DNA from: Candidatus Omnitrophota bacterium | GTDB lineage: Bacteria; Omnitrophota; Gorgyraeia; Zapsychrales; Fredricksoniimonadaceae | Assembly: GCA_903908245.1 (NCBI GenBank) | Contig: CAIVRE010000018.1 | Location: 66,876 to 130,875, forward strand | DNA: 64,000 nucleotides | Direction: 5' to 3' | Shown here: positions 44,276 to 60,046 of the stretch, one piece after another | How positions within the stretch are numbered: the first letter of the stretch is position 1 | Layout of the letters: the number at the start of each line of letters is the position of its first letter | Notes under the pieces: model-generated | Told to the model about the DNA's origin: nothing | Database searches by the model: none | The model's input: the letters and a program-made list of their open reading frames with translations, nothing else | Position numbers and translations under genes: made by a program

Positions 44276-44477
44276 TATGGATCCAAAGGTATTGGGAAAG
44301 AAGATCAAGTTGGCAAGGGTGGAGCTTGATTTAACGCAAACAGATCTGGCCGATAAGATCGGGGCAAAGCAGAAGAGTGTTTCACGCTATGAGAACGGAG
44401 CTTCTACGCCGTCGCTTGAGACAATGGCTAAAATCGCTAAAGTGCTAAAGAGACCTGTGGATCATTTTGTACAATAA
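44276..44477 (+). CDS. XRE-family helix-turn-helix transcriptional regulator
   Basis: LTQTDLADKIGAKQKSVSRYENG is the HTH_3 motif; GGAGG SD before ATG 44276; divergent from the recombinase operon. Confidence 0.7.
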
Positions 44478-44501
44478 TGAATTTAAGCAGTCATTATCTA
44501 A

Positions 44502-44526
44502 AAGCCGCCTTATGGCGGCTTTTTTA
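44502..44526 (+). terminator. intrinsic terminator (AAGCCGCC-TTAT-GGCGGCTT + TTTT)
   Basis: Perfect 8-bp stem plus a T-run after the XRE gene. Confidence 0.6.
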
Positions 44527-44617
44527 CGGATACACGACAGAACGCTGTCGTATTCGTTTTGTATATTAATAATCCGCTGTTTCACCACTTCCTAAGTGGC
44601 AACAATGAACAGGGGGC

Positions 44618-44635
44618 GCGACTTCTTCTTGTCGC
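44618..44635 (+). promoter_or_regulatory. palindromic operator copy 1 (GCGACT-N6-TGTCGC), 15 nt upstream of TATAAT (44651-44656)
   Basis: Same GCGACA-N6-TGTCGC family as the five downstream copies; sits upstream of the nuclease-WYL operon. Confidence 0.5.
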
Positions 44636-44666: not shown

Positions 44667-46238
44667 ATGAGTGAATCGTTTGACCAGCAGCAGTCTCATC
44701 ATGATCTTATTTACGACATCCTCGTCGAGAAGAATGCCGTAAAATCTTCCGGGACTCTTACAAAATCAAAATTCTTGAACGGGCTTCAATGTCCAAAACT
44801 TTTGTGGACCTGTTGTAATTCTTCCGAAACAATACCATCTCCTTCTGTCAGGACTCAACAAGTGTTCGATGTCGGGCATCAGGTTGGCGCGCTTGCTGTT
44901 GAGAGATTTCCTGGTGGACGCCATGTTCAAGAGGATGACTTCCTAAAGAATATTGAAGAGACGCAACTGCTTTTGGCTTTGAAAGATCCGCAGCCGATCT
45001 ATGAAGCGGGGATCAAGGCGGGACGGTTGTATTCCCGCGCTGATATCCTGGTTCCGTCGAAGACAGTATCCGGGGCCTGGGACATTGTCGAGGTTAAGTG
45101 CGGGGCCGGTGTTAAAGAAATTTATCTTCAGGACATTGCCTTTCAGCGTTATTGCTACGAACAGGCCGGGGTGAAGATCGGGCGTTGTTTCCTGATGCAT
45201 ATTAATAATGAATATGTTCGATGCGGTTCTATTGATGTTGAAAAGTTTTTTCATCTTGTTGATGTTACCGGTGATATTGTTTCGTTATCCGCGGCTTTGC
45301 CGGAAATTATTGACGGCTTTCTAAAGATCATTGATTTGCCTAAATGTCCTGAAGTTTGTATTGGCCAGTTTTGTGATACGCCGTATTCTTGTCAGATGAA
45401 GTCTTTGTGCTGGGAATTTCTTAAGCCCGGGAATGTGATGGAACTTCGCGGGCGTAAGGAGACGGCATTTAAGTTTTTAGAGCAGGGGATTGAACAGATC
45501 AGGGATATAACAGATCCGGAAAAGTTATCTGACGGGCCCATGATCCAGTATCAGTGTGCTTTGAGTGGAAAGCCTTTTGTCGATCATGAGAAGATCGCGG
45601 GTTTTGTTTCGGGGTTAAAATATCCCTTATATTTTATGGATTTTGAGACATTATTTGAGGCGATCCCGCGTTTTGACGGGACACGGCCTTATCAGCAGGT
45701 GCCATTCCAGTTTTCGGTACATTTACTGACGGGTCCCGGCGTATTTGCCGAGCACTTTGAATTCTTGCATAAAGAGTCGACAGACCCCCGTCCGGCGCTC
45801 TTTAAGGCGTTGCGTGAATGTTTGGATTCTAAAGGTACCATTCTTGCGTATGTCATGAGTTTTGAAAAAGCCAGGATCAGAGAACTTGGGGAAGCTTTTC
45901 CGGAACATGCTGGATGGTGCGCCAATGTTAGTGCCCGGATCGATGACCTTATCATTCCTTTCCGCAGTTTCTTTTATTATCATCCTGCTCAGCAGGGCTC
46001 TTCCTCGTTAAAGAAAGTTTTGCCTGCTCTGGTAGGCAGGGGGTATGAAGGCATGATGATCGCTGATGGGGCTCAGGCAACATCCGAATATGCCCGGGTG
46101 ACCTATGGTAAGGGAGTTGACCCTGTTGATCACGCTAAGGTCTATGAAGACCTTGAGGCCTATTGCGGGCTGGATACCATGGCGATGGTGTACATTTTAG
46201 AGAAGTTGAAACTATTGCAGAAAGGATCATCATTATGA
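44667..46238 (+). CDS. Cas4/RecB-like PD-(D/E)xK nuclease (with Cys cluster) fused to a DEDDy-type 3'-5' exonuclease domain
   Basis: N-terminal half has D...DIVEVKCG (D/EVK), a QxxxY motif (QDIAFQRY) and a C-x3-C-x4-C-x5-C cluster. C-terminal half has FMDFET (exo I DxE), a central acidic motif and YCGLD (YxxxD exo III). ATG at 44667 lies inside track ORF 44559. Confidence 0.55.
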   Translation: MSESFDQQQSHHDLIYDILVEKNAVKSSGTLTKSKFLNGLQCPKLLWTCCNSSETIPSPSVRTQQVFDVGHQVGALAVERFPGGRHVQEDDFLKNIEETQLLLALKDPQPIYEAGIKAGRLYSRADILVPSKTVSGAWDIVEVKCGAGVKEIYLQDIAFQRYCYEQAGVKIGRCFLMHINNEYVRCGSIDVEKFFHLVDVTGDIVSLSAALPEIIDGFLKIIDLPKCPEVCIGQFCDTPYSCQMKSLCWEFLKPGNVMELRGRKETAFKFLEQGIEQIRDITDPEKLSDGPMIQYQCALSGKPFVDHEKIAGFVSGLKYPLYFMDFETLFEAIPRFDGTRPYQQVPFQFSVHLLTGPGVFAEHFEFLHKESTDPRPALFKALRECLDSKGTILAYVMSFEKARIRELGEAFPEHAGWCANVSARIDDLIIPFRSFFYYHPAQQGSSSLKKVLPALVGRGYEGMMIADGAQATSEYARVTYGKGVDPVDHAKVYEDLEAYCGLDTMAMVYILEKLKLLQKGSSL

Positions 46239-47254
46239 CGGCAAAAAAGAAGATCGTTAAGAGCGGGCGGACAGGTAACAAGAAGAAGCTCGTGACTTTT
46301 AAGAGGACGGGAAGGGGAAAGAAGGCTGAAGGTCAGAAAAAGGCTGTGGAGCGCCTTATAACGATGCTTTCGATCTTGGATAAGGGCCGCTCGATCTCAT
46401 CCAAAGAAGTTTCGGATACCCTTCATGTTACTCAACGCACAGTTCAGAGAGATCTTAAGATCCTTCATGATGCGGGTTATCCTATTCAGGATCTTGAGAA
46501 CGGACGATACCAGTTCATGGAAGGCTTTTCCTTGCGCAAGGTTTCTTTGACAGAGGAGCAGGCGTCGCTCTTGTCGTTCATGTTCGATGTTGCATCCGGG
46601 TTAGGGGAGACTTTTGAAGCATCGTTCCGTGATCTTTTTAAACGCTTACTGGCCAAAGACCTTTATACGCCTTTCTATGCAAAGGTTCCGGTTAAACAGG
46701 CTCCGTTACCGGCGACGACACAGGTTAAGTTTCTTGAGGCGTCAATTCTTGAAAGCAACCGCATTAAGATCAAATATGTTTCAGCAACTCAAATTGAGAA
46801 AGAGTATTGTCTTGAGCCGCTGAAGATCGCATTCTTTGATGGGTTCTGGTATCTGATCGCGATCAAGAAAGGTGACAAGCAGATTCAAAAATACAGGGTG
46901 GACAGGGTGCTGGATGTAGAGATCCTGGAGGAGTCGTTTGCGCCTTCTGTAAATATTGACAAGATCCTCGGTGACAGCGTTAATATCTGGTTTGACGAGG
47001 TGCGAGGTGAGCGGGTTCTGATCAGGGTGGCGCCGGATGCGGTTCAGTATTTTAAGGAGCAAAAATATCTTCCGCTTCAAAAGACGGTTGAGGAGCGTAA
47101 GGATGGATCAATTGTGATCGAGACCTTTCCGGCTAACCTGGATGAGATCAAGCACATTGTCATGCATTGGGTGCCTTGTTTAACTGTGCTTGAGCCGGCG
47201 GGTTTCAAGGCCGAGATCAAGGCGATGGTGGAGGGGTATTTGAAGGATTGTTAA
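46235..47254 (+). CDS. HTH-WYL domain transcriptional regulator (BrxR/CapW-like) with Lys-rich N-terminal extension
   Basis: wHTH (ITMLSILDKGRSISSKEVSDTLHVTQRTVQRDLKIL) followed by a WYL domain (FFDGFWYLIAIKKGD...YRVDRV); the start overlaps the nuclease stop (ATGA). Confidence 0.65.
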   Translation: MTAKKKIVKSGRTGNKKKLVTFKRTGRGKKAEGQKKAVERLITMLSILDKGRSISSKEVSDTLHVTQRTVQRDLKILHDAGYPIQDLENGRYQFMEGFSLRKVSLTEEQASLLSFMFDVASGLGETFEASFRDLFKRLLAKDLYTPFYAKVPVKQAPLPATTQVKFLEASILESNRIKIKYVSATQIEKEYCLEPLKIAFFDGFWYLIAIKKGDKQIQKYRVDRVLDVEILEESFAPSVNIDKILGDSVNIWFDEVRGERVLIRVAPDAVQYFKEQKYLPLQKTVEERKDGSIVIETFPANLDEIKHIVMHWVPCLTVLEPAGFKAEIKAMVEGYLKDC

Positions 47255-48405: not shown

Positions 48406-49031
48406 ATGAACCTGACTGATTTGAGAATTGTTGTTAAAGACTTGCTAATGAAGCGGGTTTATTGTTGTGAGGCGGATTTGCAGTTTTCTTTGGCCTGGAA
48501 ATTAAAAGAAAAAGATAACGATGTTCGTTTGGAGATTCCTTTTCATGGGATTGAAGATGAGGAAGGAAGAAGGAGTACCTGGATGTTCTCTTTTTATCAT
48601 CGACGAAAGAAAAGATCGGAGTGGAGCTAAAATATAAGACATCAAATTTTCCTTATGTTGATGCTTTTGCAGGGGCGCTTACCTTGAAAGATCATGGTGC
48701 ACAGGATCTTGGTTTATATGATTTCTTATGGGATGTGTACCGTTTGGAGCAATTTTGTAAGGATTCAAAGGTAGATCGGGGGTTTGCTGTCTTTGTTACG
48801 AATGATTACAGCTATAAAAATGACGTAAAGCGTCAGAAATCGAACGCCAACCAGTTTCGGTTGCCTGAAAATAGATTGATCACAGGGAGTTTGGCCTGGG
48901 GTAATCCTGATGCCGGGTCTTTAGGAAGCCGATTGTCAGAATTTAAATTGTACGGGCAGTATTCTGTAAATTGGGTTGATATTGAAGGTACTCATTTTTC
49001 ATTCCTGATTTTTGAGGTTTTAAGGCCTTAG
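48406..49031 (+). pseudogene. hypothetical gene apparently split by a +1/-1 frameshift at an A/G-rich tract (two overlapping ORFs, 48406-48630 and 48621-49031)
   Basis: The ORFs overlap by 10 nt in different frames at CGACGAAAGAAAAGATCGGAG. This could be a genuine frameshift, a programmed slip or a sequencing error. Confidence 0.3.
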
Positions 49032-49062: not shown

Positions 49063-49080
49063 CGACAGGATGCTGTCGCC
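49063..49080 (+). promoter_or_regulatory. palindromic operator copy 2 (GCGACA-GGATGC-TGTCGC), 10 nt upstream of TATAAT
   Basis: Read directly; precedes phosphatase A. Confidence 0.5.
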
Positions 49081-49120
49081 TTCATGCTTTATAATCCATG
49101 CAGCTAAAAAGGAGGCTGAT

Positions 49121-50092
49121 ATGGCAGTAAGAAAAGATGATTCGGATGAGGGACGCATGTTTGAGGTTGCTGATTATGGGCGTGAACTTCCAAGGGAGAT
49201 TGATCCCGGCAAGCCGTATTGGGTGTTAGGTGGTAAGGCGGCGTTGTTTGGCATGCCGCATCCGAATCGACTCGCCAGGGATGGTCAGAAGGATCTGTTC
49301 AAAAGACTTCAGAATGCCAAAGTGCAGGTAATTATCAATCTGTCTGGGAGAAGGTATGCGAATCCTGATCCGAATTGGTTTGATTACCAAGAGTTTTTTA
49401 TCACTGACGGTGGTCCGATGGATGGAGAACAGAATATTCTTTGGGCGGCCGTTGCGTATGTTGTGAAGTCATTAAAAGCCGGGAAAAGTGTTGTGATCCA
49501 TTGTGAAGGCGGAACAGGACGCACGGGTGTGACAATAGGGTGCGTGTTGTGCAAGCTTGGAAAAGGAACCGGTCAGGACATCGCGATTTGGTTAAGTGAG
49601 CTTAATAATAGACGCCCCGGGAAACGCTGGCCTGAGGCCTCTATTCAAGGGAAGATCGTTCGGGAATGCTGTCCGGATAAGAAAGGCAATGATCGTCAGG
49701 TGATTGATCCGGCAACGCGCAATATTAAGGAAGTGTCGCTTTTTTCTGATGAAGAAAGAAGCTTTATGTGTACGGTTGTAGCCGTCAATGGAGATCGGAT
49801 TACAGTGCGCCGGCATGATACGGGAGAGGTTATTGAGGTTTCCAGCAGGTTCCTGCAGAAGCAGGAGCGGCCTCGGGAAGAACAAAGGAATGTGCAGGAT
49901 ATATTTGCATCGGCCACTCCGGAAGATCTTCAGGAAAGAGCTCGTCAGTATCCCTATATCCTTTTGGATGAGGTTCAACGGACGCTGGCGCTTTTTGCTA
50001 AGAAGTTGTCTTCAGCGAAGGCTGAGAAACTAAAGAATGATCTTTTAGATATTAATGCACGGATAGAGGTCCTTAAGAAAAAGATCAATTAA
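49121..50092 (+). CDS. Cys-based protein phosphatase-fold protein A (CX5R P-loop HCEGGTGRTG) with ~150 aa C-terminal extension
   Basis: VVIHCEGGTGRTGVTIGC is the PTP/DUSP-type active site. Paralog of 51664-52248 over the N-terminal ~190 aa. ATG inside track ORF 49046; coordinate ±1. Confidence 0.55.
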   Translation: MAVRKDDSDEGRMFEVADYGRELPREIDPGKPYWVLGGKAALFGMPHPNRLARDGQKDLFKRLQNAKVQVIINLSGRRYANPDPNWFDYQEFFITDGGPMDGEQNILWAAVAYVVKSLKAGKSVVIHCEGGTGRTGVTIGCVLCKLGKGTGQDIAIWLSELNNRRPGKRWPEASIQGKIVRECCPDKKGNDRQVIDPATRNIKEVSLFSDEERSFMCTVVAVNGDRITVRRHDTGEVIEVSSRFLQKQERPREEQRNVQDIFASATPEDLQERARQYPYILLDEVQRTLALFAKKLSSAKAEKLKNDLLDINARIEVLKKKIN

Positions 50093-50116
50093 GGATTTTC
50101 TAATTTATCTCTAATA

Positions 50117-50150
50117 AGCCGGACGGCATCAAAATGCTATCCGGCTTTTT
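50117..50150 (+). terminator. intrinsic terminator (AGCCGGA-N18-TCCGGCT + TTTTT)
   Basis: Stem plus T-run after phosphatase A; a similar hairpin sequence recurs at about 52296-52318. Confidence 0.55.
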
Positions 50151-50160
50151 CATTTTATTG

Positions 50161-50178
50161 GCGACACGATGTTGTCGC
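50161..50178 (+). promoter_or_regulatory. palindromic operator copy 3 (GCGACA-CGATGT-TGTCGC), followed by TGT-TATTAT extended -10
   Basis: Read directly. Confidence 0.5.
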
Positions 50179-50229
50179 TGGCAATTGTTATTATTGCATC
50201 AGGTGAACAAATGATAACAGGAAAGGAAA

Positions 50230-50442
50230 ATGCTTATGCAGATCGCCAGCGCAGTTCAACGGGGTTCGTCAGTCTATGTTTATGATCAGAACGGCAGTCA
50301 GTTGTGCAGTTTAAGTGCCGGTAGCGGTCCCAATGATGGACTGAAAGGGTATACGGGTTGTTCCGTTAGCATTCGACGGGGTAGCACCATATATACCTAT
50401 AACGAAAAAGGAAGTCAGATCTCGGTAACATCCGCAGTTTGA
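50230..50442 (+). CDS. small protein (70 aa) with internal tandem repeat
   Basis: GSSVYVYDQNGSQLCSLSAG and GSTIYTYNEKGSQISVTSA are two ~20 aa repeats. Confidence 0.35.
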   Translation: MLMQIASAVQRGSSVYVYDQNGSQLCSLSAGSGPNDGLKGYTGCSVSIRRGSTIYTYNEKGSQISVTSAV

Positions 50443-50451
50443 GGAGAGAGT

Positions 50452-51051
50452 TTGATGCGAAGTTTTGTGATCGGCGATATTCATGGTCAGGATGAAGCTC
50501 TTGTGTCGGTTCTATCGAAATGCGGGTTTGTGTATGAAGAGGACCGTCTGATCGTCTTAGGCGACATATACGATGGATTGAAACCTGAGGCGTGCATTGA
50601 GCATCTTAAAACGATCAGGCATTTGGTGTCGATCATGGGTAATCATGATCATGCGGTCATGGATATGCAAATACGTGAGGGGCAATACGCTCCTGAGACG
50701 ATGTTCCTAAAGTCCATGCGTTCATTCTTTACGGAAGACGGGAGGTTTTTTGCTCATGGGGGCTTTGATCCATACAAGCCTCTGACGGAGCAGGACGAGT
50801 ACGATCTTGAGGGAAGTCGAAAACTTCCGTCTGAGGCCTGGAAAGCGCATATGAGGGGTGATGATTTTATGATCGATGGGTTCCGTGAGGTTTATGTGGG
50901 TCATACGCCAACCCAGATCTATGGGTTTACAACGCCGCTAAATCTTGGGAATCTTTGGATGATGGATACCGGAGCAGCGCCGAGGCTCGGTGGGTATTTA
51001 AGCGTCATGGATATTGATACCAAGGAGTTTTGGCAGGTGAAATGCTGCTAA
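50452..51051 (+). CDS. PPP-family metallophosphoesterase (Ser/Thr phosphatase / ApaH-PrpE-like)
   Basis: GDIHG, GDIYDG, GNHD and VGHTP are the calcineurin-like phosphoesterase motifs. Confidence 0.75.
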   Translation: MMRSFVIGDIHGQDEALVSVLSKCGFVYEEDRLIVLGDIYDGLKPEACIEHLKTIRHLVSIMGNHDHAVMDMQIREGQYAPETMFLKSMRSFFTEDGRFFAHGGFDPYKPLTEQDEYDLEGSRKLPSEAWKAHMRGDDFMIDGFREVYVGHTPTQIYGFTTPLNLGNLWMMDTGAAPRLGGYLSVMDIDTKEFWQVKCC

Positions 51052-51084
51052 TTCATTTCGAGTCAAGTAAGAGATTTTGAAGGG

Positions 51085-51639
51085 GTGCCTATGAAGTGGA
51101 GTGAGTTTGTTCAACGAAAAGAAGCGTATAAAAAGACCTGGGCGTTGCTTAAGGCTGAATATGCGCCCGAGAATCCGGTAAGAAAGTTCCTGGATAAGGC
51201 TTACATGAACATCTTCTTCAATGGAAAGCAAATTGATTTTAATTTAGATCCGTACACTATTGCACGTGACACTCCGGATTTCTTCGTTAAGAATAAATAT
51301 TTTAATGAATATCTTGAGTTGATTAAGACATGTAAGGCATTGGAAGATTTGTCTTATAAAGAGAAAAAGACGAAGGTTACTAACGAATTCGATCACAATG
51401 GAACTATAAGGAAGAAAGTCAGTCGATTAGATATGAAAAAGAAAGAACTTCAGCAGTTTGATGTCAATCAACTTGAAGTGGTGCCTAATCGCGCGGAAAT
51501 GATCGTCTCGACGATAGATATGGATATTATTCAGAATATCAAGGGGTCAAAGTTCTGCGATCAAGAGGCAACCTTAATGAGTCGTGCCTCAATACGGGTG
51601 ATCCTTGTTGGCGGTGATAAATTGGGATATCCATGGTAA
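51085..51639 (+). CDS. hypothetical protein X1 (paralog of 52414-52905)
   Basis: MKWSEF... and the C-terminal IDMDIIQNIKGSKFCDQEATLMSRASIRVIL align with the paralog's MTWDEF... and VDMDLIQQIKNSPYCDQEKTMMRPASINVVL. Confidence 0.4.
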   Translation: MPMKWSEFVQRKEAYKKTWALLKAEYAPENPVRKFLDKAYMNIFFNGKQIDFNLDPYTIARDTPDFFVKNKYFNEYLELIKTCKALEDLSYKEKKTKVTNEFDHNGTIRKKVSRLDMKKKELQQFDVNQLEVVPNRAEMIVSTIDMDIIQNIKGSKFCDQEATLMSRASIRVILVGGDKLGYPW

Positions 51640-51663
51640 AAGAACGATCAAGGGAGAGCAAAT

Positions 51664-52248
51664 ATGCCTGTTATGACTGAAGAACTGGATGAGCCGCGCA
51701 TCTATGAGATCGCTGATTATGGAAAACCTCTGCCGCGGGTTATGAATCCTTTGAGGGCGTATCGTGTCCTTGACGGCAACGCGTCGTTATTCGGGATGCC
51801 GCATCCGTCCATTCTTAAGGAAATAGACCGCAAGCAGTTGTTTGCTCAATTGTATGAGGACGGAGTTCGTTATCTTATTAATCTGACTAAAGAAAATTCA
51901 GGTGCTTCATATTCCGACAGGATTTTATTATCATCGTTTTGTCCTGTTACGGATCAGGGACCAAAAGGGGCTATTGAAAAGACTATGCTTTTATCGGGCG
52001 TAGATAGCGCGGTAGCGGCTTTAAAGAATGGCGAGGGGGTTGTGATCCATTGTTGGGGAGGAACCGGGCGTACGGGGACGGCCATCGGGTGTATTTTACG
52101 CAAGCTGGGTAAAGGCTCCGGTGTAGAGATTGTGAATTGGCTTGGTGAGTTGAATCAAAGGCGTGAAAGGCATTGGCCGGAGTCACCGGTACAGGCTGAA
52201 GTGGTTAGGGAGTGTCAGCCGGGGGAAGATTTCTTTGATAGGCTGTAA
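51664..52248 (+). CDS. Cys-based protein phosphatase-fold protein B (HCWGGTGRTG)
   Basis: VVIHCWGGTGRTGTAIGC; the N-terminus IADYGKPLPRVMNP...LFGMPHPS is paralogous to protein A. Confidence 0.55.
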   Translation: MPVMTEELDEPRIYEIADYGKPLPRVMNPLRAYRVLDGNASLFGMPHPSILKEIDRKQLFAQLYEDGVRYLINLTKENSGASYSDRILLSSFCPVTDQGPKGAIEKTMLLSGVDSAVAALKNGEGVVIHCWGGTGRTGTAIGCILRKLGKGSGVEIVNWLGELNQRRERHWPESPVQAEVVRECQPGEDFFDRL

Positions 52249-52330
52249 TCTTTAAGGCAGAGAATTTTGAACGCTGTTGTTATTAAGGCCGGGCGACATG
52301 AAAGTGTTATCCGGTTTTTCTTTTTACTAA

Positions 52331-52348
52331 ACGACAGGATGCTGTCGC
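52331..52348 (+). promoter_or_regulatory. palindromic operator copy 4 (ACGACA-GGATGC-TGTCGC)
   Basis: Read directly; preceded by a hairpin resembling the 50117 terminator. Confidence 0.45.
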
Positions 52349-52413
52349 GTGAGTGTTTTAAGGTTATGTACGGTGTTGATCCGGGCAGGCAGGTGAATCG
52401 GGCGGGGGGTGTT

Positions 52414-52905
52414 ATGACATGGGATGAGTTTCTGGCAGAAAAGAAGTTGTATGTTCAATCCTGGAAGAAAATGAAAGAGGGCGCTACAGAAGATATGCAG
52501 AAGTTTCTGAGCAAGTCCTGGATCGTGGTGTATTGCAAACAGCAGTTTGATATTGATGCGGATTTTATGACTGTTTTTAATGAATGTCCTTCATTCTTTC
52601 AAAATGTGCCAAGGTTCACCAGGATCAAAGCGCTCTGTGAAGAGATGAAGACGCTTGAGAAACGCATTAAGCGGGAGAAAGAAAACCATAGTGACCTGCT
52701 GGAAGATAAGAAAGATCTTCAAGAAGAAATAGCGGAGTTGTGTCCGGGGGAGCTTCCAGTTGATGATTCCTGGAGGATTGAGGTCAGGTTTCCTACTGTA
52801 GATATGGATCTGATCCAACAGATCAAGAATTCTCCGTATTGTGATCAGGAAAAGACAATGATGCGCCCTGCCTCTATTAATGTGGTGTTGAAGAACGTAC
52901 TGTAA
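52414..52905 (+). CDS. hypothetical protein X2 (paralog of 51085-51639)
   Basis: See X1. The start was chosen by paralog alignment; alternatives are ATG 52366 and the track start 52267. Confidence 0.4.
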   Translation: MTWDEFLAEKKLYVQSWKKMKEGATEDMQKFLSKSWIVVYCKQQFDIDADFMTVFNECPSFFQNVPRFTRIKALCEEMKTLEKRIKREKENHSDLLEDKKDLQEEIAELCPGELPVDDSWRIEVRFPTVDMDLIQQIKNSPYCDQEKTMMRPASINVVLKNVL

Positions 52906-52912: not shown

Positions 52913-53314
52913 ATGGAAGAAATCAATGGAAAATTAAAGGTCAGACTTTCGCCCGCAGTTATTAGAGGGTGGACCATCGAGTTGGATAGGATTTTTCGTT
53001 CCTGTGACAGGAATGATACAAAGATCAGAATCTTCAAGTTTTGTTATCAGCCTGTAAGTGGCGAGTTGATTTTTGACGGGTCATATTTTCATGCTGACAT
53101 GCTTAGAAAGCATGGATGCCAAAAGTTCGATGAGTATGTTCGTGGGATCTGTTTCTGGAAGAAACGGGTTATTTATCTCAGGGGGCATGCGAATGAGGAT
53201 TGGCTTAATAAGACAAAGGCAATGCTTCGTCAAAATGGTGTTGGGCGGCATATCCGGATTATTTGGGGAGAAAAGGCAGCACATGAGCTTCGTCACGATT
53301 TGATTGGCCTGTAA
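52913..53314 (+). CDS. hypothetical protein (133 aa)
   Basis: ORF in operon context; no recognisable domain. Confidence 0.35.
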   Translation: MEEINGKLKVRLSPAVIRGWTIELDRIFRSCDRNDTKIRIFKFCYQPVSGELIFDGSYFHADMLRKHGCQKFDEYVRGICFWKKRVIYLRGHANEDWLNKTKAMLRQNGVGRHIRIIWGEKAAHELRHDLIGL

Positions 53315-53319: not shown

Positions 53320-53337
53320 GCGACAGGATGTTGTCGC
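53320..53337 (+). promoter_or_regulatory. palindromic operator copy 5 (GCGACA-GGATGT-TGTCGC), followed by TGT-TATACT extended -10
   Basis: Read directly. Confidence 0.5.
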
Positions 53338-53383
53338 GGCCAATTGTTATACTTGATCCCGGAAGACAAAAACGGGAGAGGTT

Positions 53384-54841
53384 ATGATGGATAATACTAT
53401 TGGTTGGCTGATTGCAGGTCTTTTAGTGGTCGTATTTTTGATGGCTTTGTTTTCAAAGAAGCCCGTTAAGTCAAAAGTTTTCAAAGTCAGAACGCGAGTT
53501 GTGCCGCCGGTTGATTGTGCGAAAGAAGATTTCTTTGCCCGTTTTGATGATGCGATTGAGCAGAATCTTACCAATGCGGCGTCTATGAGCTACGATCCGC
53601 CACTTCAAGAAGAAGGCCCGGAAGATGATCCGGTTTTTGAACTTCCATCCACAAGACCTCAATTTCGCATCCCGGAAGCCTCGCTGAAGATGGGCATTTC
53701 TCCAGTAAAGCCGCGCATGGCTTCAGCGAAGACCAAATTATTAGCTGCTCCAAAACGACTCGCCCTGTTCCTTGTGGCAAGCTCATTTCTGTTTGCTATT
53801 AGCGGTGAGGCGTTTGCTTTATCGGTAGACAGGCCTTTTACTGGAACCGACGAGCATACGGTTTATCAGCCATTTGATGAGGCGAATAGCGATCCGGTTT
53901 ATAAAAGCAGTGTACTACCTGGGACAACAGTAAAGTCGACGGCTCTCCAATCTTCAGATCATTTGAATGTTAGTAAGCCGGTTGCAAAAGACAGTTTTAA
54001 AGCCATTGCCGTTGAAAATTCGTCTTCGGCAAAGGATTCGAATGCCTGGGTATTCTGGGTTCTTGGCATCCTGTTGATGATCTCCGGTTTTGGTATTGCT
54101 CAAGCGTATTCATTGGAAATGGTTTTCTTTAATGATAGCGCTGACATGTGGCTTTCGATTGCTATGGCAGTAGTTGTGGCATGCCTCTGTTTTGTGCAAG
54201 ACAAAACCTGGCTCTGGAGTGGCTTTGGATTTGTTGTTATTTATCATTTTGTGGCGGCATATAAATTCAATCCGGGTATGGGTGCAATGGCATTTATTAT
54301 CGGGATATCAAGGGTGATCATCGGCGTTGTTATACCTGCAATAGCTTTATTTACATTAGTCTCCGGCCCGTCAAGGGAAAAGGACGAGAGTGCCGCCAGT
54401 TATGAAGCCAGATGCGCCATGCATATGGTCTTTAAAGCAGCATTCTTAACGGGGTTGTTCTTCTTTATGAAGTCGTTGGTGAATGGTCAGAAAGTGCGTG
54501 AGGCAAGAGGGGAGTTTGAGCATTTTGAGGAGTCATTTGAACAGAAGTCTGAGGAATCAGCCAAGGCTGAGCCACGGAGCGAAAAGGGCTCTGATGGTCA
54601 GAAGAACGGTTTTAAAGCAGCCTCAGAGCACGCTCCGTCAGATCATGAGATCTTTGGGGTTTCCCGGAATGCAACTTTTGAGGCCATACAGCGGGCATAC
54701 CGTAAAAAGATGATGAAGATCCATCCTGATCGGATGGCGGGCCTGGGGGCGAAGTATCGGCAGAAGGCCGAGGAAGAATGCAAAAAAATTAATGCGGCCT
54801 TTGATCGATTGCGGAAAGAGAGGAACCATGTCTTTGTTTGA
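53384..54841 (+). CDS. DjlA-like membrane protein with C-terminal J domain
   Basis: N-terminal TM segment plus a central cluster of TM helices. C-terminal J domain (DHEIFGVSRNATFEAIQRAYRKKMMKIHPDR...) carries the HPD motif. Confidence 0.6.
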   Translation: MMDNTIGWLIAGLLVVVFLMALFSKKPVKSKVFKVRTRVVPPVDCAKEDFFARFDDAIEQNLTNAASMSYDPPLQEEGPEDDPVFELPSTRPQFRIPEASLKMGISPVKPRMASAKTKLLAAPKRLALFLVASSFLFAISGEAFALSVDRPFTGTDEHTVYQPFDEANSDPVYKSSVLPGTTVKSTALQSSDHLNVSKPVAKDSFKAIAVENSSSAKDSNAWVFWVLGILLMISGFGIAQAYSLEMVFFNDSADMWLSIAMAVVVACLCFVQDKTWLWSGFGFVVIYHFVAAYKFNPGMGAMAFIIGISRVIIGVVIPAIALFTLVSGPSREKDESAASYEARCAMHMVFKAAFLTGLFFFMKSLVNGQKVREARGEFEHFEESFEQKSEESAKAEPRSEKGSDGQKNGFKAASEHAPSDHEIFGVSRNATFEAIQRAYRKKMMKIHPDRMAGLGAKYRQKAEEECKKINAAFDRLRKERNHVFV

Positions 54842-55157
54842 TGCCCGTATAGCGCATATTAACCGTTATTTTGCTGTCTATTTAACTGTTATTTCGGTGG
54901 TCCTTGTTTTGGTCATTTCCGGATCTCCCGTTGCTATTTCATTGTCACATTTCGATAGAGATATGCCTGTTGGTTTCGGCAAGGGGATGGCGCACGGGTT
55001 TTTGCTGTCTGTGAACCTTATCCGTTCGATCTTTGATGTTCGGACAGGTATTTACCAGATACCCAACACTGGAATGGGATACAACGCAGGGTTCTTTCTG
55101 GGCATTATTTTATGGTTCGCTATCGGGCGTATGGGGGAAGAAACGAAGGCGACATGA
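54828..55157 (+). CDS. small hypothetical membrane protein (109 aa)
   Basis: ATG 54828 inside track ORF 54792; two predicted TM helices; overlaps the J-protein 3' end. Confidence 0.35.
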   Translation: MSLFDARIAHINRYFAVYLTVISVVLVLVISGSPVAISLSHFDRDMPVGFGKGMAHGFLLSVNLIRSIFDVRTGIYQIPNTGMGYNAGFFLGIILWFAIGRMGEETKAT

Positions 55158-55166
55158 GGCTGTCGC
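55149..55166 (+). promoter_or_regulatory. palindromic operator copy 6 (GCGACA-TGAGGC-TGTCGC)
   Basis: Read directly; precedes the long downstream operon. Confidence 0.5.
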
Positions 55167-55212
55167 TGGTTAATGCTAAGCTCTTATACATAATTAATAC
55201 TCAGGTGATTGC

Positions 55213-55617
55213 ATGCAAGAGAGAATCTTGAAGAAGCGAAAAACGTATAAGCCTATCGACGCGGAAACGCTGGGGCGTAGCCTTTTTAAGATCCACACGT
55301 GTAAGAAACGAGGAAAGTATTCGCCGGCCGTTAAAGTCATTGCCGGTGATATATGGGAGATGCTTGGTGGGATGCGGGCAATGGCGCAGGAGTTTGTTAA
55401 GAATCCGACGCTTGAGGTAATGGAAGAACTCAGATTTTGGTTATTGGATAGTGATCATCATTGGAATTCATTAAAGAATATTTGCAGCAGGAGCAGAGGG
55501 CGGCGGAGTTTGGATCGCTTGGCTAAAGAATATCCGCAGTGGTTGTTGCTGCTACCTTTGGAAGATGTAGCAGAACGGTTATGGTGGCTTGAAGAAGAAG
55601 GAGATGAGGGAATATGA
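55213..55617 (+). CDS. hypothetical protein (134 aa), translationally coupled to the AAA+ ATPase
   Basis: Stop/start overlap (ATGA) with the next gene. Confidence 0.35.
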   Translation: MQERILKKRKTYKPIDAETLGRSLFKIHTCKKRGKYSPAVKVIAGDIWEMLGGMRAMAQEFVKNPTLEVMEELRFWLLDSDHHWNSLKNICSRSRGRRSLDRLAKEYPQWLLLLPLEDVAERLWWLEEEGDEGI

Positions 55618-56984
55618 AAAATGATCAGGAATACTTCGATAACTACTTTTGCATCAGTGAACTGCTGATCGAGAAAGATCTGCTTGTCGATAAGTTGTGG
55701 GAGGGCAAAAACGATACCGGATATTTGGCCAGCGCACACTATCAGGCAAGGAAGGCCATTAACACGCTTAATTCTTTGATACGCGATGAAGAAAAGCGCT
55801 TGAGTCATATTATTCGTAAGGCTGAGTCGCAAGGAACGATTTTTTCTTTTGAATCGTTCACAAGAAAGATGGAGTTGAGTGATTTTGAGAAACGACTGAT
55901 GCTTTTCTTTCTGCATCTTGATCTGTTTTGCAGTGGCAGCGTCGGTTTTCCAAGAAGAAAGCTGGCGTTGATCCTTGATTGCGAAGAAACAGCGGTATCC
56001 CGTGCGAGAACGTTGCTGGATCTGTTTCCAGGTAGTGCTTTATACAAGAAGAATATTCTGTCTGCGATCGACATCGGCGGAAGTGAGGTTCGTTTGGCTG
56101 AGAGCATGCGGGATGCTTTGAGAAAACTTGTGTCAGGTCAGGAGGCGGATCTTGTTATGACTGAGACTACCCGGGAGGAGATTGAGGCTGCCGGGGTTGT
56201 TTATGAGCCCGAATACAGCATGGAAGACGTGTCGCTTCCCGGGCAGATCAAAGAACAGGTTTTAATGCATTTGAACACGCATGGACGGCTGGCATCGTTA
56301 GGAGTCATGGATAAAGTGCGGCGCGGTCGTGGGCTTTGCATGTTGTTTTATGGTCCTCCAGGGACAGGGAAAAGCATGCTTTCTCATGCCATAGCACGTC
56401 ATTTAGGAAAAAAGGTTCTTCAGGCATCTCCGGCGCAGATCAAAGACCGCTGGGTAGGCCAGACAGACAAGAATATTGCCGCTTTATTCAAGGTGGCTAA
56501 AGAAAAGAATTATGTCTTGTGTCTGGATGAGGTCGATACGCTTTTATTTGAACGAAGCGAGGCGTCACGTTCATGGGAGATCTCGCAGACGAATACGTTT
56601 CTTGAAGAAGTAGAAAGATTTGACGGGATTTTAGTAATGACAACAAATCTGGAAGGGCGGCTTGATCCAGCGATTGAGCGCCGGGTGGCGTTGCGTGTCC
56701 GTTTTGATGCGCCTGACCATTGCGTACGGGAGACTATCTGGCAGAAACAGATCCCGTCGACTGTTAAGTGTGGGGAAGATATTAATTGGGCTCGTCTGGG
56801 AATGCAGTATTCATTTACCGGCGGTTATATCAAGAATGCCGTCATGTCCGCGTTGCGTCATATGCTTTCACGGGAAAGTCAGGTGCTTGAGATGGAGGAT
56901 CTTGTTTATGGAGCCGAGAGTGAAATGAAGGGGCTTTTACGAAGTTCCGCTAAAGCTCCAATGGGTTTTGCAACTAGAGGATAA
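55614..56984 (+). CDS. classic-clade AAA+ ATPase with ~230 aa N-terminal domain of unknown function
   Basis: Walker A LFYGPPGTGKSM, Walker B VLCLDEVD and second region of homology/Arg finger (TTNLEGRLDPAIERRV). Confidence 0.75.
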   Translation: MKNDQEYFDNYFCISELLIEKDLLVDKLWEGKNDTGYLASAHYQARKAINTLNSLIRDEEKRLSHIIRKAESQGTIFSFESFTRKMELSDFEKRLMLFFLHLDLFCSGSVGFPRRKLALILDCEETAVSRARTLLDLFPGSALYKKNILSAIDIGGSEVRLAESMRDALRKLVSGQEADLVMTETTREEIEAAGVVYEPEYSMEDVSLPGQIKEQVLMHLNTHGRLASLGVMDKVRRGRGLCMLFYGPPGTGKSMLSHAIARHLGKKVLQASPAQIKDRWVGQTDKNIAALFKVAKEKNYVLCLDEVDTLLFERSEASRSWEISQTNTFLEEVERFDGILVMTTNLEGRLDPAIERRVALRVRFDAPDHCVRETIWQKQIPSTVKCGEDINWARLGMQYSFTGGYIKNAVMSALRHMLSRESQVLEMEDLVYGAESEMKGLLRSSAKAPMGFATRG

Positions 56985-56990
56985 AAATCT

Positions 56991-57179
56991 ATGAATCTTA
57001 AGGAATGGCAGAAGATGCTTGGCAAGAAGAAGTTCCCGAGTTTGCACGGTGTTTATGATGCCATTGATATGGATGGGCGGATTGTGGGGCGGACGGTCTA
57101 CATCAAGGGCAGGAAGGTCATGACGATTGCACCAATATGGCCGGAAGAAGAAATTACGATAGACGACGAAAAGAAATAA
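56991..57179 (+). CDS. small hypothetical protein (62 aa)
   Basis: ORF between the AAA gene and murA2 in a tight operon. Confidence 0.3.
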   Translation: MNLKEWQKMLGKKKFPSLHGVYDAIDMDGRIVGRTVYIKGRKVMTIAPIWPEEEITIDDEKK

Positions 57180-60037: not shown

Positions 60038-60046
60038 CGGAAAGAG

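Follow-up and report, generated by a model that had tools for sequence, protein, structure and literature searches.

Phosphatase and orphan-family genes of an Omnitrophota genome as candidate cargo of a WYL-box regulon

Introduction

Do two related phosphatase genes, each standing beside one member of a second gene pair, represent a duplicated functional unit? This question is raised by a contig of Candidatus Omnitrophota bacterium, from which a stretch of 64,000 nt (the window; Table 1) was analysed. A preliminary description had proposed that a Cys-based (CX5R) phosphatase and a partner protein, here called PhosA or PhosB and X1 or X2, form a duplicated two-gene module. In our analysis the paralogs were recovered, but the module was not, and the genes appear to be united by a shared promoter and operator.

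Two pairs of paralogs and a metallophosphatase

BLASTP supported both paralogies: PhosA (49121-50092) and PhosB (51664-52248) are 45% identical over 194 aligned aa (E 4e-54), and X1 (51085-51639 as first delimited) and X2 (52414-52905) are about 32% identical (31-32%) over 173 aa (E 3e-22). The starts previously given for PhosA (49121) and X2 (52414) are correct; the gene caller made both ORFs too long (49046/49070 and 52267), for the longer versions enclose predicted promoters (49063-49095 and 52332-52364). The start of X1 is most likely 51091 and not 51085, because an ATG is found there, the family consensus is MxWxEF and the protein P0001 has 182 aa.

The assignment of CX5R and PPP phosphatases also held. 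The loop HC-x-GGTGRTG is intact in PhosA and PhosB, with its catalytic Cys and Arg, and both score above the gathering thresholds of the Pfam families PF22785 (Tc-R-P) and PF22784 (PTP-SAK), and below those of DSPc and Y_phosphatase. They are probably ancient tandem paralogs within a small DUSP23-like clade; PhosA has a C-terminal extension of ~130 aa, composed of a beta-rich segment and a coiled coil, which is also present in P0006 of the related locus L001. The PPP enzyme exceeds the Pfam Metallophos cut-off (48.9 bits vs 21.5; 1.4e-12), has the motifs GDIHG, GDIYD and GNHD, and matches best the family phrog_246, a NinI-like Ser/Thr phosphatase (1.6e-27), and, in the PDB, lambda phosphatase 1g5b (4.2e-5). 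The tandem-repeat protein p70, which had likewise been placed between the copies, contains on direct reading two repeats of ~23 aa (RGSxhYxY[DN]xxGSQh) and has no family match in Pfam, NCBIfam or PHROGs. The reported absence of a kinase was confirmed among the cluster genes scanned with Pfam; p170, the HAD gene and p207 lay outside that scan, and of these the NCBIfam scan took in the HAD gene only.

In the alignment, an Asp of PhosB (TDQGP) occupies the general-acid position of DUSP23, and the equivalent of PhosA is TDGGP (A2 alignment). Protein substrates are favoured by this Asp and by the likeness of the enzymes to DUSP23 and lambda phosphatase. Alternatively, the genes could constitute a set for nucleic-acid end processing or repair, in which the CX5R enzymes are RNA/DNA 5'-phosphatases or triphosphatases (like BVP and PIR1/DUSP11), the PPP enzyme, like Pnkp, is a 3'-phosphatase or 2',3'-cyclic phosphodiesterase, and damaged or foreign nucleic acid is processed by these together with two nucleases, the DUF2779 exonuclease and the beta-CASP enzyme. 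The CX5R fold does include RNA triphosphatases, the regulon includes an enzyme of the beta-CASP type (RNase J/CPSF-like) as well as a predicted 3'-5' exonuclease, the PPP enzyme weakly matches a phage "RNA ligase" PHROG with a phosphoesterase module (phrog_8238, 4e-6), and a UDG-family glycosylase adjoins one X homolog. We nevertheless give this view little credence, since cysteine phosphatases of the RNA-triphosphatase type are not known to have the general-acid Asp that PhosA and PhosB retain, the PPP enzyme finds its best matches among protein phosphatases (NinI, lambda phosphatase and PrpA), and none of the clusters examined yielded a ligase, a polynucleotide kinase or a Hen1-type methylase.

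Separate cassettes rather than a duplicated module

Predicted terminators and separate promoters split the presumed module into PhosA, p70-PPP-X1-PhosB and X2-p133. PhosA is thus predicted to be monocistronic, a terminator (52285-52325) followed by a promoter lies between PhosB and X2, and co-transcription of an X gene with a phosphatase gene is predicted only for X1-PhosB, with X1 first. Gene orders in relatives also speak against the module: in the close relative L031, the ortholog of PhosA (71%) stands immediately before that of PhosB (87%), and a PQ-loop gene comes next, with no X; in L001, AAA and MORN genes separate the single phosphatase from the single X; and in ~19 other X loci examined, no phosphatase of the PhosA/PhosB type was seen.

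These arrangements bear also on the view that the genes are toxin-immunity or toxin-antitoxin pairs, in which a polymorphic-type toxin (PF22785) and the adjacent X as its immunity protein were duplicated together. The best Pfam match of the phosphatases is indeed named "polymorphic toxin system DSP-PTPase", and the X genes are small, fast-evolving and located beside phosphatases in the window; but the adjacency is not conserved, PhosB and X2 are parted as described, and PhosA and PhosB are stand-alone proteins without N-terminal trafficking, Rhs or Tc domains (Pfam), and we therefore consider this view very improbable.

A shared palindrome and its promoters

The feature that appears to unite the cluster genes is a 16-bp palindrome (CGACA-N6-TGTCG, the box), found as seven exact matches in the window against 0.24 expected, a number reached by none of 100 shuffles. 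All seven are intergenic, centred near -31 and separated by exactly 11 nt from a -10 element of the form TAnnnT; no usable -35 hexamer was found at these promoters, three of which come directly after an intrinsic terminator. When up to two mismatches were allowed in the full 33-nt pattern, 13 sites matched (1.0 expected); every one lies in the cluster, and 1-44 kb is free of them. The earlier idea of one regulon is supported by a seven-fold common promoter and operator, which would define a regulon of ~20 kb with promoters from 44.5 to 62.9 kb. Promoter 1 precedes the operon of an HTH-WYL-WCX regulator, the candidate binder of the box, and autoregulation is predicted. The unit of promoter 6 runs on, with gaps of at most 13 bp, into MurA2-MORN2-TPR-PAD-p170-HAD-p207, though constitutive promoters may also serve MurA2 and the HAD gene.

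Table 1. Features of the window assigned in this analysis
Feature	Position	Strand	Evidence
XRE-type HTH protein, 85 aa, upstream of regulon	44220..44477	+	Pfam HTH_3 1.9e-16
Intrinsic terminator (hairpin, T-run) after XRE gene	44500..44525	+	RNAfold -19.6 kcal/mol, 44478-44534 stretch
WYL-box promoter 1, CGACAGAACGCTGTCG-N11-TATATT; DUF2779-WYL-MORN1-p74-p136	44535..44567	+	motif scan
Degenerate second box CGACTTCTTCTTGTCG, predicted leader of DUF2779-WYL operon	44619..44634	.	2-mismatch search
DUF2779 protein, 523 aa, predicted 3'-5' exonuclease, RNase H-like superfamily	44667..46238	+	Pfam PF11074 6.9e-39
HTH-WYL-WCX transcription regulator	46235..47254	+	Pfam HTH_11, WYL, WCX
MORN-repeat protein 1, 323 aa	47297..48268	+	Pfam MORN_2 3.5e-19
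Two small overlapping ORFs, 74 and 136 aa, last in unit 1	48406..49031	+	ORF list
WYL-box promoter 2, CGACAGGATGCTGTCG-N11-TATAAT; PhosA	49063..49095	+	motif scan
PhosA, 323 aa, DUSP23-like Cys phosphatase domain residues 1-190	49121..50092	+	BLASTP, Pfam, alignment
Intrinsic terminator after PhosA	50116..50150	+	RNAfold -19.7 kcal/mol, 50093-50161 stretch
WYL-box promoter 3, CGACACGATGTTGTCG-N11-TATTAT; p70-PPP-X1-PhosB	50162..50194	+	motif scan
p70, 70 aa, two internal repeats	50230..50442	+	sequence reading
PPP-family metallophosphatase, lambda/NinI/PrpA-like, 198 aa	50455..51051	+	Pfam, PHROG, PDB, motifs
X1, 182 aa, X1 clade (P0002, P0037), C-terminal GGDKLGYPW tail	51091..51639	+	alignments
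PhosB, 194 aa, DUSP23-like Cys phosphatase, catalytic domain only	51664..52248	+	BLASTP, Pfam, alignment
Intrinsic terminator after PhosB	52285..52325	+	RNAfold -17.4 kcal/mol, 52249-52331 stretch
WYL-box promoter 4, CGACAGGATGCTGTCG-N11-TAAGGT; X2-p133	52332..52364	+	motif scan
X2, 163 aa, X2 clade	52414..52905	+	alignments, AlphaFold2 model pLDDT 96.6
p133, predicted co-transcription with X2	52913..53314	+	ORF list, ortholog
WYL-box promoter 5, CGACAGGATGTTGTCG-N11-TATACT; DjlA-like gene	53321..53353	+	motif scan
DjlA-like protein, C-terminal J domain, 484 aa, then small protein (54828-55157)	53387..55157	+	Pfam
WYL-box promoter 6, CGACATGAGGCTGTCG-N11-TAAGCT; p134-AAA-p62	55150..55182	+	motif scan
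p134; single-domain classical AAA ATPase (Cdc48/VAT-like, 456 aa); p62	55213..57179	+	Pfam AAA 3.8e-24
MurA2, MORN2, TPR, PAD_porph-type deiminase, p170, HAD-IB phosphatase, p207	57193..62899	+	Pfam, NCBIfam, spacing
WYL-box promoter 7, CGACATAACGCTGTCG-N11-TATTCT; beta-CASP gene	62881..62913	+	motif scan
MBL-fold beta-CASP hydrolase (RNase J/CPSF-like), runs off window	62944..64000	+	translation; NCBIfam RNase J family 8e-12

Genes of the cluster in related loci

The box was found again in related metagenomic loci carrying the same regulator, upstream of phosphatase, AAA, DnaJ, TPR, DUF2779, PAD-X, X and beta-CASP genes, and at all 22 box sites of the window, L001, L014, L011, L027, L031 and L032 the N11-TAnnnT arrangement points toward the downstream gene. 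Among the examined loci with this WYL subfamily, only L037 has the regulator and no box; variant boxes precede X in L028 and L026, and two boxes in a divergent spacer of L019 and L021 look more like classical repression. The set DUF2779-WYL-MBL-PAD-X-MORN-AAA-TPR recurs in three lineages. Orthologs were assigned for the regulator (L001, 77%; L014, 39%), DUF2779 (L014, 39.5%), p133 (L036, 70%, with its own WYL box), the DjlA-like gene (L001, L036), MORN2, TPR, PAD and p207 (L001), and MORN, TPR and PAD (L014). The beta-CASP gene is taken to correspond to the MBL genes in L001 and L014, on the basis of shared family and cluster position; the L014 protein matches 2az4 and RNase J in the PDB.

The XRE gene has its own terminator and sigma70-like promoter (44156-44183; promoter scan, 11/12 match). 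A Cas4-like PD-(D/E)XK domain has been reported as co-occurring in the DUF2779 family (PMC3985635). The DjlA-like protein matches Pfam DnaJ (1.1e-10) and NCBIfam DjlA (2.6e-10, under its cut-off), the AAA ATPase matches VAT/Cdc48 in the PDB (1e-28), and the genes from MurA2 to p207 are tightly packed, with overlaps or gaps of at most 9 bp. The 74-aa and 136-aa ORFs had no match in family searches.

The X family

The X proteins form a small, unnamed orphan family with 86 representatives (clusters); they are ~160 aa long and combine an alpha/beta core and a variable helical hairpin. The C-terminal block previously noticed in X1 and X2 proved to be real and family-wide (hE[IVL]RF..h.M..IQ.IK.S...D...T.MS.ASIRVVLK), but the Cys of its "CDQE" lacks such conservation. 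Each of the two has relatives in other organisms that are nearer to it than its paralog is: X1 shares 56% identity with P0037, and X2 shares 78%, 47% and 42% with P0038, P0043 and P0040. No fold match was found in the PDB or among viral folds, and the X motif was not found in the 2.9 million viral contigs searched; therefore, no phage counterpart is evident. Neighbours differ from locus to locus and include serine recombinases, a Prim-Pol/D5 primase and a type I R-M island, and a metallophosphatase adjoins X in three of ~21 loci, a hint of a link. X1 and X2 do not appear to be dedicated phosphatase partners, and the X family would be recurrent cargo of the WYL-box regulon.

A proposed stress regulon and its likeness to known systems

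The explanation that we prefer, and hold to be somewhat more probable than its negation, is that the genes in question are cargo cassettes of a multi-operon regulon for response to stress or infection, governed by an ssDNA-sensing WYL activator and including three phosphatases that probably act on proteins. A dimer of the regulator would bind the box and recruit RNA polymerase once its WYL domain carries ssDNA, arising from DNA damage or from phage or mobile-element replication; the co-transcribed DUF2779 exonuclease may help generate this ssDNA. The units thus induced would be PhosA alone, p70-PPP-X1-PhosB, X2-p133, the J-domain protein, the AAA unfoldase operon running into MurA2-MORN-TPR-PAD-HAD, and lastly the beta-CASP nuclease. 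PhosA, PhosB and the lambda/NinI-type PPP enzyme would most probably dephosphorylate proteins, resetting Ser/Thr/Tyr phospho-signalling during the response.

Equally, a CapW/BrxR-type repressor could use the palindrome over the -35 region as its operator, and this possibility is central to another explanation, a defence island against phages or mobile elements. In that case, a WYL repressor of the BrxR/CapW type would block RNA polymerase at the box until infection or DNA damage frees it; defence would then be carried out by X together with the phosphatases, the AAA ATPase and the beta-CASP nuclease. It is consistent with matches of the regulator to PADLOC WYL models (1.2e-34) and of the AAA protein to IetA (4.5e-31) and NCBIfam IteA_antiphage (7e-29), with the large serine recombinase and tRNA-Ser at the left edge, with the fall of G+C to 0.44 over 44-56 kb, and with the above-mentioned neighbours of X homologs and paired boxes of L019 and L021. 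However, the IteA score is far under the cut-off (101 vs 510 bits) and the IetS protease is absent; none of the ten PADLOC-scanned cluster proteins (PAD, MORN2, TPR and MBL lay outside the scan) points to a defined multi-gene defence system; all hits are to models of single components or candidates (WYL, Cas3c, AbiEii and Csa3 for the regulator; IetA and TRIP13 for the AAA protein; PDC-S10 for PPP; PDC-M66B for X2). Moreover, the gene set is chromosomal, syntenic in three lineages and located beside housekeeping genes, the X motif was not found in the viral contigs, and the box position, the spacing identical to that of the PafBC -26 element and the want of a -35 hexamer suit activation better. 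We regard a defence island as unlikely.

In our preferred explanation of an activator, the regulon looks wired like the DNA-damage regulons of the WYL activators PafBC and DriD, which provide the best PDB matches of the regulator (PafBC 6sj9, 1.9e-5; DriD 8tp8/9pfq/7tzv, 2-3e-4), a similarity that is weak at E values of 1e-5 to 3e-4. PafBC acts by sigma adaptation with an ssDNA ligand at the motif tGTCgg(N10)tA(N3)T (PMC8635444), and the spacing from box to TAnnnT in the mycobacterial PafBC promoter is the same as in the promoters of the window. DriD is activated by ssDNA and binds ATACGAC(X)7GTCGTAT, over the -35 position of promoters without a -35 element (PMC13004042; PMC9186387). The half-site of Caulobacter DriD resembles that of the window (CGAC/GTCG), whereas the interval between half-sites is one base longer in the window (CGAC-N8-GTCG, against N7 in DriD).

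Promoter structure and the proposed WYL-box regulon

The window contains seven copies of the palindrome CGACA-N{2,8}-TGTCG (0.24 expected), a count that no shuffle attains, and the idea of the preliminary description that these genes form one regulon is thereby borne out. All seven copies have N6, are intergenic, and are followed after exactly 11 nt by a TAnnnT hexamer; this WYL box, CGACAGGATGCTGTCG, is a putative target of the HTH-WYL-WCX protein (WYL regulator) encoded in the cluster. When the full 33-nt pattern was searched with two mismatches, the additional matches were reverse readings of the known boxes and one degenerate box, and nothing was found within the first 44 kb. As read from the sequences, neither half of a box lies 16–18 nt from the -10 element, and therefore no usable -35 hexamer is available. 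A terminator scan had picked out G+C-rich palindromes in several spacers, two of the boxes among them. We rejected the possibility that the boxes are mere terminators or REP elements, because separate hairpin-plus-T-run terminators lie just upstream of three of them, and because their N11-TAnnnT relation, their persistence in other genomes and their association with a WYL gene all speak for promoters.

Positions of the features in the window and in related metagenomic loci (L numbers)
Locus	Feature	Position	Strand	Remark
Window	prfA	69-1166		
Window	ORF after prfA	1180-2007		
Window	First MurA	2017-3279		
Window	c-di-GMP-I riboswitch aptamer	6411-6578		62.6 bits
Window	rRNA operon	34640-39851		
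Window	16S rRNA	34640-36183		
Window	c-di-GMP-I riboswitch aptamer	40015-40105		63.2 bits
Window	Large serine recombinase	42078-43970	-	630 aa
Window	tRNA-Ser(GGA)	42210-42300	+	
Window	Terminator	44500-44525		
Window	WYL box 1	44535		-10 TATATT
Window	Degenerate box	44619-44634		CGACTTCTTCTTGTCG
Window	WYL regulator	46235-47254		
Window	p74 ORF	48406-48630		74 aa
Window	p136 ORF	48621-49031		136 aa
Window	WYL box 2	49063		-10 TATAAT
Window	PhosA	49121-50092	+	323 aa
Window	Terminator	50116-50150		
Window	WYL box 3	50162		-10 TATTAT
Window	p70	50230-50442	+	70 aa
Window	PPP metallophosphatase	50455-51051	+	198 aa
Window	C-terminal tail of X1	51600-51639	+	
Window	PhosB	51664-52248	+	194 aa
Window	Terminator	52285-52325		
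Window	WYL box 4	52332		-10 TAAGGT
Window	X2	52414-52905	+	
Window	WYL box 5	53321		-10 TATACT
Window	WYL box 6	55150		-10 TAAGCT
Window	Second MurA	57193-58482		
Window	WYL box 7	62881		-10 TATTCT
L014	WYL box ahead of regulator operon	1927		
L014	~100-aa protein	10552-10872		
L021	Two WYL regulators with divergent operons	299-3341, 7824-10051		
L030	X island	1-13422		
L034	~100-aa protein	1227-1517		
L037	AAA to 269-aa protein	2-3415		

The same relation is kept in related metagenomic loci: when the window and six further loci are taken together, TGTCG-N11-TAnnnT is directed towards the gene that follows at 22 of 22 sites. The boxes lie upstream of a phosphatase, AAA, DnaJ and two further genes in L001; of DUF2779, a 234-aa gene, a 115-PAD-53-X operon and an AAA gene in L014; of X in L027; of phosphatases in L031 and L032; and between the WYL gene and X in L011. 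Variant boxes are present upstream of X in L028 and L026, two boxes without the N11-TAnnnT relation occupy the WYL/X divergent spacers of L019 and L021, and in L037 the regulator is present and no CGACA-N6-TGTCG box was found. As expected for autoregulation, a box also precedes the regulator's own operon: box 1 in the window, one box in L014, and the spacer boxes of L019 and L021. The degenerate box of the window lies approximately 45 nt inside the predicted DUF2779-WYL transcript, and it could be an autorepression site by analogy, because negative autoregulation has been reported for DriD (PMC9186387). In L021, two paralogous WYL regulators are present on one contig, and each points away from an operon of its own, with a two-box spacer in between. 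The first of these operons begins with X, the other has a protein with a Fic motif (HPFEDGNGR, by eye), and the two have paralogous 174- and 178-aa proteins in common.

The regulator

The cluster has a single regulator of the HTH-WYL-WCX type (Pfam HTH_11 7.6e-9, WYL 1.4e-13 and WCX 1.8e-9), whose best matches in PDB are PafBC (6sj9, 1.9e-5) and DriD (8tp8, 9pfq and 7tzv, 2–3e-4). The PafBC motif is tGTCgg(N10)tA(N3)T, with its upstream element at -23 to -28 and no -35, and activation proceeds by sigma adaptation when ssDNA is present (PMC8635444). Its spacing is identical to the TGTCG-N11-TAnnnT of the window, and both are without a -35. DriD binds ATACGAC(X)7GTCGTAT over the site of the missing -35 at a constant distance to the -10, and is turned on by ssDNA (PMC13004042). 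This homodimeric HTH-WYL-WCX activator of Caulobacter crescentus has a pseudo-palindrome with the same CGAC/GTCG half-sites as the window box, a fixed box-to-(-10) distance and a box at its own gene, as in the window; the half-site spacing is N7 in DriD and N8 in the window. PafBC is a fused or heterodimeric pair reading one half-site, whereas the window element is a full palindrome, and a homodimer is therefore implied. Because the PafBC spacing and the DriD half-sites both match, we infer by analogy a homodimeric WYL activator that would bind CGACA-N6-TGTCG as a dimer with ssDNA as its trigger.

The regulator is predicted to be co-transcribed with a DUF2779 protein. This family has been assigned to the RNase H-like superfamily with probable 3'-5' exonuclease activity, and it is reported to occur together with a Cas4-like PD-(D/E)XK domain (PMC3985635). 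That this protein would be the source or the processor of the ssDNA signal is plausible, and we offer it as an idea only.

Transcription units and cargo

Unit borders were drawn from promoters, terminators and gene spacing, and the predicted promoters correct three mis-called start codons (PhosA, X2 and DUF2779). The seven units, in which p numbers denote small window proteins, would be DUF2779-WYL-MORN1-p74-p136 (unit 1); PhosA alone (unit 2); p70-PPP-X1-PhosB (unit 3); X2-p133 (unit 4); a DjlA-like J-protein with a small protein (unit 5); p134-AAA-p62 and, joined to it across gaps of at most 13 bp, MurA2-MORN2-TPR-PAD-p170-HAD-p207 (unit 6); and a beta-CASP MBL gene that extends past the window end (unit 7). 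DUF2779, WYL, MBL, PAD, X, MORN, AAA and TPR genes are common to the window, L001/L002 and L014–L016 in differing orders, the window MBL being placed in this set by family and position only; phosphatase, PPP, DnaJ and PQ-loop genes are variably present across loci. The picture is that of a regulon made of reshuffled promoter-plus-gene cassettes.

The AAA gene encodes a Cdc48/VAT-like ATPase with one domain. The product resembles IetA/IteA of the IetAS/IteAS anti-phage system, but NCBIfam IteA gives 101 bits against a cut-off of 510, and no protease domain (IetS) was found in the scanned neighbouring genes. MurA is encoded twice in the window. The paralogs share 68% identity, and each exceeds the TIGR01072 murA cut-off; the first follows prfA and an ORF, and the second starts 13 bp past p62 within the operon of WYL box 6. 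The p74 and p136 ORFs overlap and match no family, and the second starts with ELKYK; as judged by eye, the pair may represent a single gene split by a frameshift and is possibly nuclease-like.

Phosphatases and their possible substrates

The ORFs from PhosA to X2 are all on the + strand, and the preliminary description of them holds with respect to two paralog pairs, CX5R loops, and the PPP gene and 70-aa repeat protein in between. PhosA and PhosB are 45% identical across the full PhosB length (E 4e-54), and X1 and X2 32% over 173 residues (E 3e-22). The P-loops HCX5R(S/T) are VVIHCEGGTGRTG in PhosA and VVIHCWGGTGRTG in PhosB; HCxGGTGRTG is intact in both, and the H, C, G, R, T and G of the loop are invariant in an 8-sequence phosphatase alignment. 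PhosA and PhosB exceed the cut-off of 27 bits for PF22785 (Tc-R-P, 'polymorphic toxin system DSP-PTPase'; 34.9 and 43.1) and for PF22784 (PTP-SAK; 32.9 and 34.2), and both stay under the gathering scores of PF00782 DSPc (21.3 and 19.4 against 33.5) and PF00102 Y_phosphatase (20.0 and 19.7 against 20.9). A literature search on the origin of the names PTP-SAK and Tc-R-P found nothing useful. Membership in a polymorphic toxin system, where the toxin domain forms the C-terminus of a large secreted or delivered protein (Rhs, Tc and others), was rejected in view of the protein lengths and of the lack of any further Pfam domain in either protein, and so was a conserved downstream immunity gene, the next gene being X2 in the window, PQ-loop in L031 and AAA in L001. 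A Cdc14-like housekeeping phosphatase was also rejected, as the Cdc14 matches have poor support (E 2e-3) and extend over the P-loop alone.

The nearest solved structure is human DUSP23 (PDB, E 6e-5). In the phmmer alignment, the Asp of PhosB TDQGP aligns with the D of DUSP23 IPDFCPP, and the Asp of PhosA TDGGP falls in the same column. This DUSP23 residue is the general acid. More distant homologs (P0007–P0009) have no D in this column. Like the DUSP23/VHZ-like atypical dual-specificity phosphatases, the clade of PhosA and PhosB has an HCxxGxGRTG P-loop with a general-acid Asp about 33 residues upstream, and the PhosB-type domain is likewise a small single domain of roughly 150–190 aa. Unlike DUSP23, the clade has an N-terminal ADYG..LPR...P.Y.VL.G.A.LFGMPHP and a downstream WPE..Q motif, and PhosA carries an extra 130-aa C-terminal extension. 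The clade is very small (at least 7 clusters in a shallow, word-indexed search), and a scan of genome contigs with the phosphatase alignment gave only distant homologs in unrelated contexts without a WYL box.

The PPP enzyme matches Pfam Metallophos (48.9 bits, cut-off 21.5) and, best of all, phage NinI and lambda phosphatase (phrog_246, 1.6e-27; 1g5b, 4e-5), and its translation has the signatures GDIHG, GDIYDG and GNHD. These motifs and a similar size are common to lambda phosphatase, NinI and PrpA-PrpB; unlike those enzymes, it aligns well in the N-terminal half only, lacks the usual Arg in the second motif (GDIYDG), and sits in a WYL-box operon adjoining an X gene. L036 shows this arrangement as well, and so does L024, where the metallophosphatase is a more distant one. 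The accompanying p70 contains two RGSxhYxY[DN]xxGSQh repeats.

Because the catalytic signatures are kept, PhosA, PhosB and PPP are probably all active; they are newly recorded members of previously known enzyme classes. Nucleic-acid ends or nucleotides may be the substrates, as was proposed from the outset, and the nuclease neighbours would suit action on nucleic-acid ends, but the cluster has no ligase and no polynucleotide kinase. Cysteine phosphatases of the RNA 5'-triphosphatase type (BVP, PIR1 and Mce1), which act on RNA 5' ends, have the CX5R loop and no general-acid Asp; PhosA and PhosB have Asp at that position, and this speaks against their belonging to that type. On the basis of family knowledge we favour protein phosphomonoesters as substrates of the three enzymes, because of the general-acid Asp and the affinities to DUSP23, lambda phosphatase and PrpA. 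The reported lack of a kinase stands for the genes scanned against Pfam, which did not include p170, HAD and p207.

The X family and its relation to the phosphatases

X1 and X2 have no match in Pfam, NCBIfam, PHROGs or the PDB sequences, and PADLOC gives nothing beyond the candidate model PDC-M66B for X2. Among 1.84 billion cluster representatives, 86 relatives were identified with a HMMER profile, mostly of 150–185 aa. Common to them are a helix with MxWxEF at the N-terminus, a strand with FL..SYLV and, at the C-terminus, the block hE[IVL]RF..h.M..IQ.IK.S...D...T.MS.ASIRVVLK; E138, F141, I149, K153, D159 and I170 (X1 numbering) are near-invariant. The C-terminal block that had been noticed in the two window proteins is thus family-wide, and the Cys marked within it is not conserved across the family. 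An AlphaFold2 model of X2 from a 68-sequence alignment (pLDDT 96.6, pTM 0.86) predicts an alpha/beta core with a long helical hairpin of variable length, and a BFVD fold search with this model found nothing. X is a genuine small family with a predicted fold and no solved relative. Two degenerate X-motif DNA patterns gave no matches in viral contigs. A role as DNA mimic or nucleic-acid binder was rejected as a deduction from charge, which is uninformative because the family pI spans 5.1 to 10.0. Members of the X1 clade (X1, P0002 and P0037) have a GGDK[LM]G[YH]PW tail beyond the SIR[VI][IV]L strand, and the other members end at about ...VVLK.

The preliminary description had gone further and read phosphatase and X as a duplicated two-gene module. 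While the paralogs and the kinds of enzyme were recognized correctly, this part of the interpretation does not hold: co-transcription here is limited to X1-PhosB, and the two are not adjacent in L001 or L031. In L031, a close relative, a PhosA ortholog (71%) is directly followed by a PhosB ortholog (87%) and a PQ-loop gene, with no p70-PPP-X1 between the phosphatases and no X2 after them. L001 and L002 have one phosphatase with the PhosA-type C-terminal extension, separated by AAA and MORN genes from a single X1-like X, and L014 to L016 have an X gene and no detectable phosphatase. Phosphatases of the PhosA/PhosB clade were absent from 12 further X loci in a motif scan of metagenome contigs, and none was found among roughly 19 X loci beyond the window and L001. 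X1 is 56% identical to P0037 and X2 78% to P0038, both values being above the X1-X2 identity, and the two are therefore old paralogs or separate acquisitions and no recent local copy. No gene is found more often than X immediately after a WYL box or adjoining the regulator, and metallophosphatases are recurrent neighbours of X.

Neighbours of X in about 21 distinct X loci
Neighbour	Loci
WYL regulator, directly adjacent	L011, L019, L021, L037
Metallophosphatase	window; L036 (X2-p132-PPP, PPP 56% identical to that of the window); L024
MORN proteins	L001, L014, L034
PAD-type deiminase	L014, L028
Beta-CASP MBL	L014, L023, L026
AAA ATPase	L001, L014, L037
Large serine recombinase	L025, L030
Prim-Pol/D5 primase	P0039 locus

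Several of these neighbourhoods have features of their own. X adjoins a 70-aa gene and the recombinase in L030 and L025, where the island, as judged by eye, also includes HsdM- and HsdS-like genes of type I R-M, together with large ATPases and an HNH protein. A protein of about 100 aa lies between X and the MORN gene in both L034 and L014, and is 67% identical between them, with X proteins that are 29% identical; the window has no counterpart. L037 has the order AAA (C-terminal fragment), X, WYL regulator, UDG-family glycosylase and 269-aa protein.

Host and genomic setting

The window includes an rRNA operon. Its 16S matches the target of the planctomycete probe PLA46 perfectly and that of EUB338 with one mismatch (ACTCCTACGGGAGGCTGC), which suggests that the host is a PVC-group bacterium. 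Of the two c-di-GMP-I riboswitch aptamers, the second follows closely on the 5S rRNA, ahead of the gene for a 556-aa protein without a Pfam match. The large serine recombinase is at the left edge of the cluster. The 3' end of its ORF runs antisense across tRNA-Ser(GGA), and other members of its 90% cluster have 574–577 aa; the overlap may be an integration junction or an over-extension of the ORF. The G+C content is 0.43–0.46 over 44–56 kb against 0.46–0.55 in the first 42 kb. The syntenic position beside housekeeping genes in L001 and L014 argues that the core gene set is a resident chromosomal cluster and no recent insertion.

Significance and comparison with known systems

At the level of sequence the regulon architecture is strongly supported, and what we infer is its signal and its biochemical output. 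The organising principle is the known logic of PafBC/DriD-style WYL regulons with an unusual cargo. This promoter logic is now found in uncultured bacteria of another lineage, where seven promoters and several metagenomic loci give a sequence-defined regulon, whose cargo is sharply unlike known DNA-damage regulons: three or four phosphatases with no detected kinase, together with an AAA unfoldase, a J-domain protein, a second MurA, a PAD-type deiminase and a beta-CASP nuclease. The regulon supplies testable candidates for new damage- or infection-induced effectors, and for the X family (86 clusters, confident predicted structure) control by a WYL box is the first functional handle.

A bolder proposal, which we regard as rather unlikely, is that the genes constitute a previously undescribed WYL-activated, ssDNA-triggered and phosphatase-based checkpoint for damage or infection in a PVC-like host. 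In place of DNA repair of the classical kind, such a checkpoint would bring about a wholesale dephosphorylation of proteins, for which the two DUSP23-like enzymes would act together with a lambda-type PPP and a HAD phosphatase; proteostasis and envelope remodelling would be tied to it by way of the AAA unfoldase, the DjlA-like J-protein, the second MurA and the PAD-type deiminase; and the orphan X family would be its hallmark effector or adaptor, perhaps working with the recurrent neighbouring metallophosphatase.

To our knowledge, WYL activators are understood in detail from two systems only, PafBC of actinobacteria and DriD of Caulobacter. The PafBC regulon of mycobacteria is a RecA-independent DNA-damage response under a WYL heterodimer, and like the window it combines an HTH-WYL-WCX-type regulator with a multi-operon regulon. 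Unlike that regulon, the window cargo is without recognisable repair genes of the recA, uvr and dnaE2 type and has instead phosphatases, an AAA ATPase, a J-domain protein, a MurA paralog, a PAD-type deiminase and X; unlike actinobacterial PafBC hosts, the window 16S has a PVC-type signature. DriD controls didA, bapE, recA, recJ, dnaG and its own gene (PMC9186387), a cargo including cell-fate effectors and a nuclease. The window cargo differs, with no DidA or BapE homologs seen, and the similarity of DriD to the window regulator is confined to the PDB-search level mentioned. The BrxR/CapW WYL repressors of defence islands resemble the window in that an island of variable content is headed by a WYL regulator and that promoter regions contain a palindromic operator, but the window operator is present at seven promoters, each in an activator-like position, and the window cargo, from a PADLOC scan of ten cluster proteins, is not a recognised defence system.
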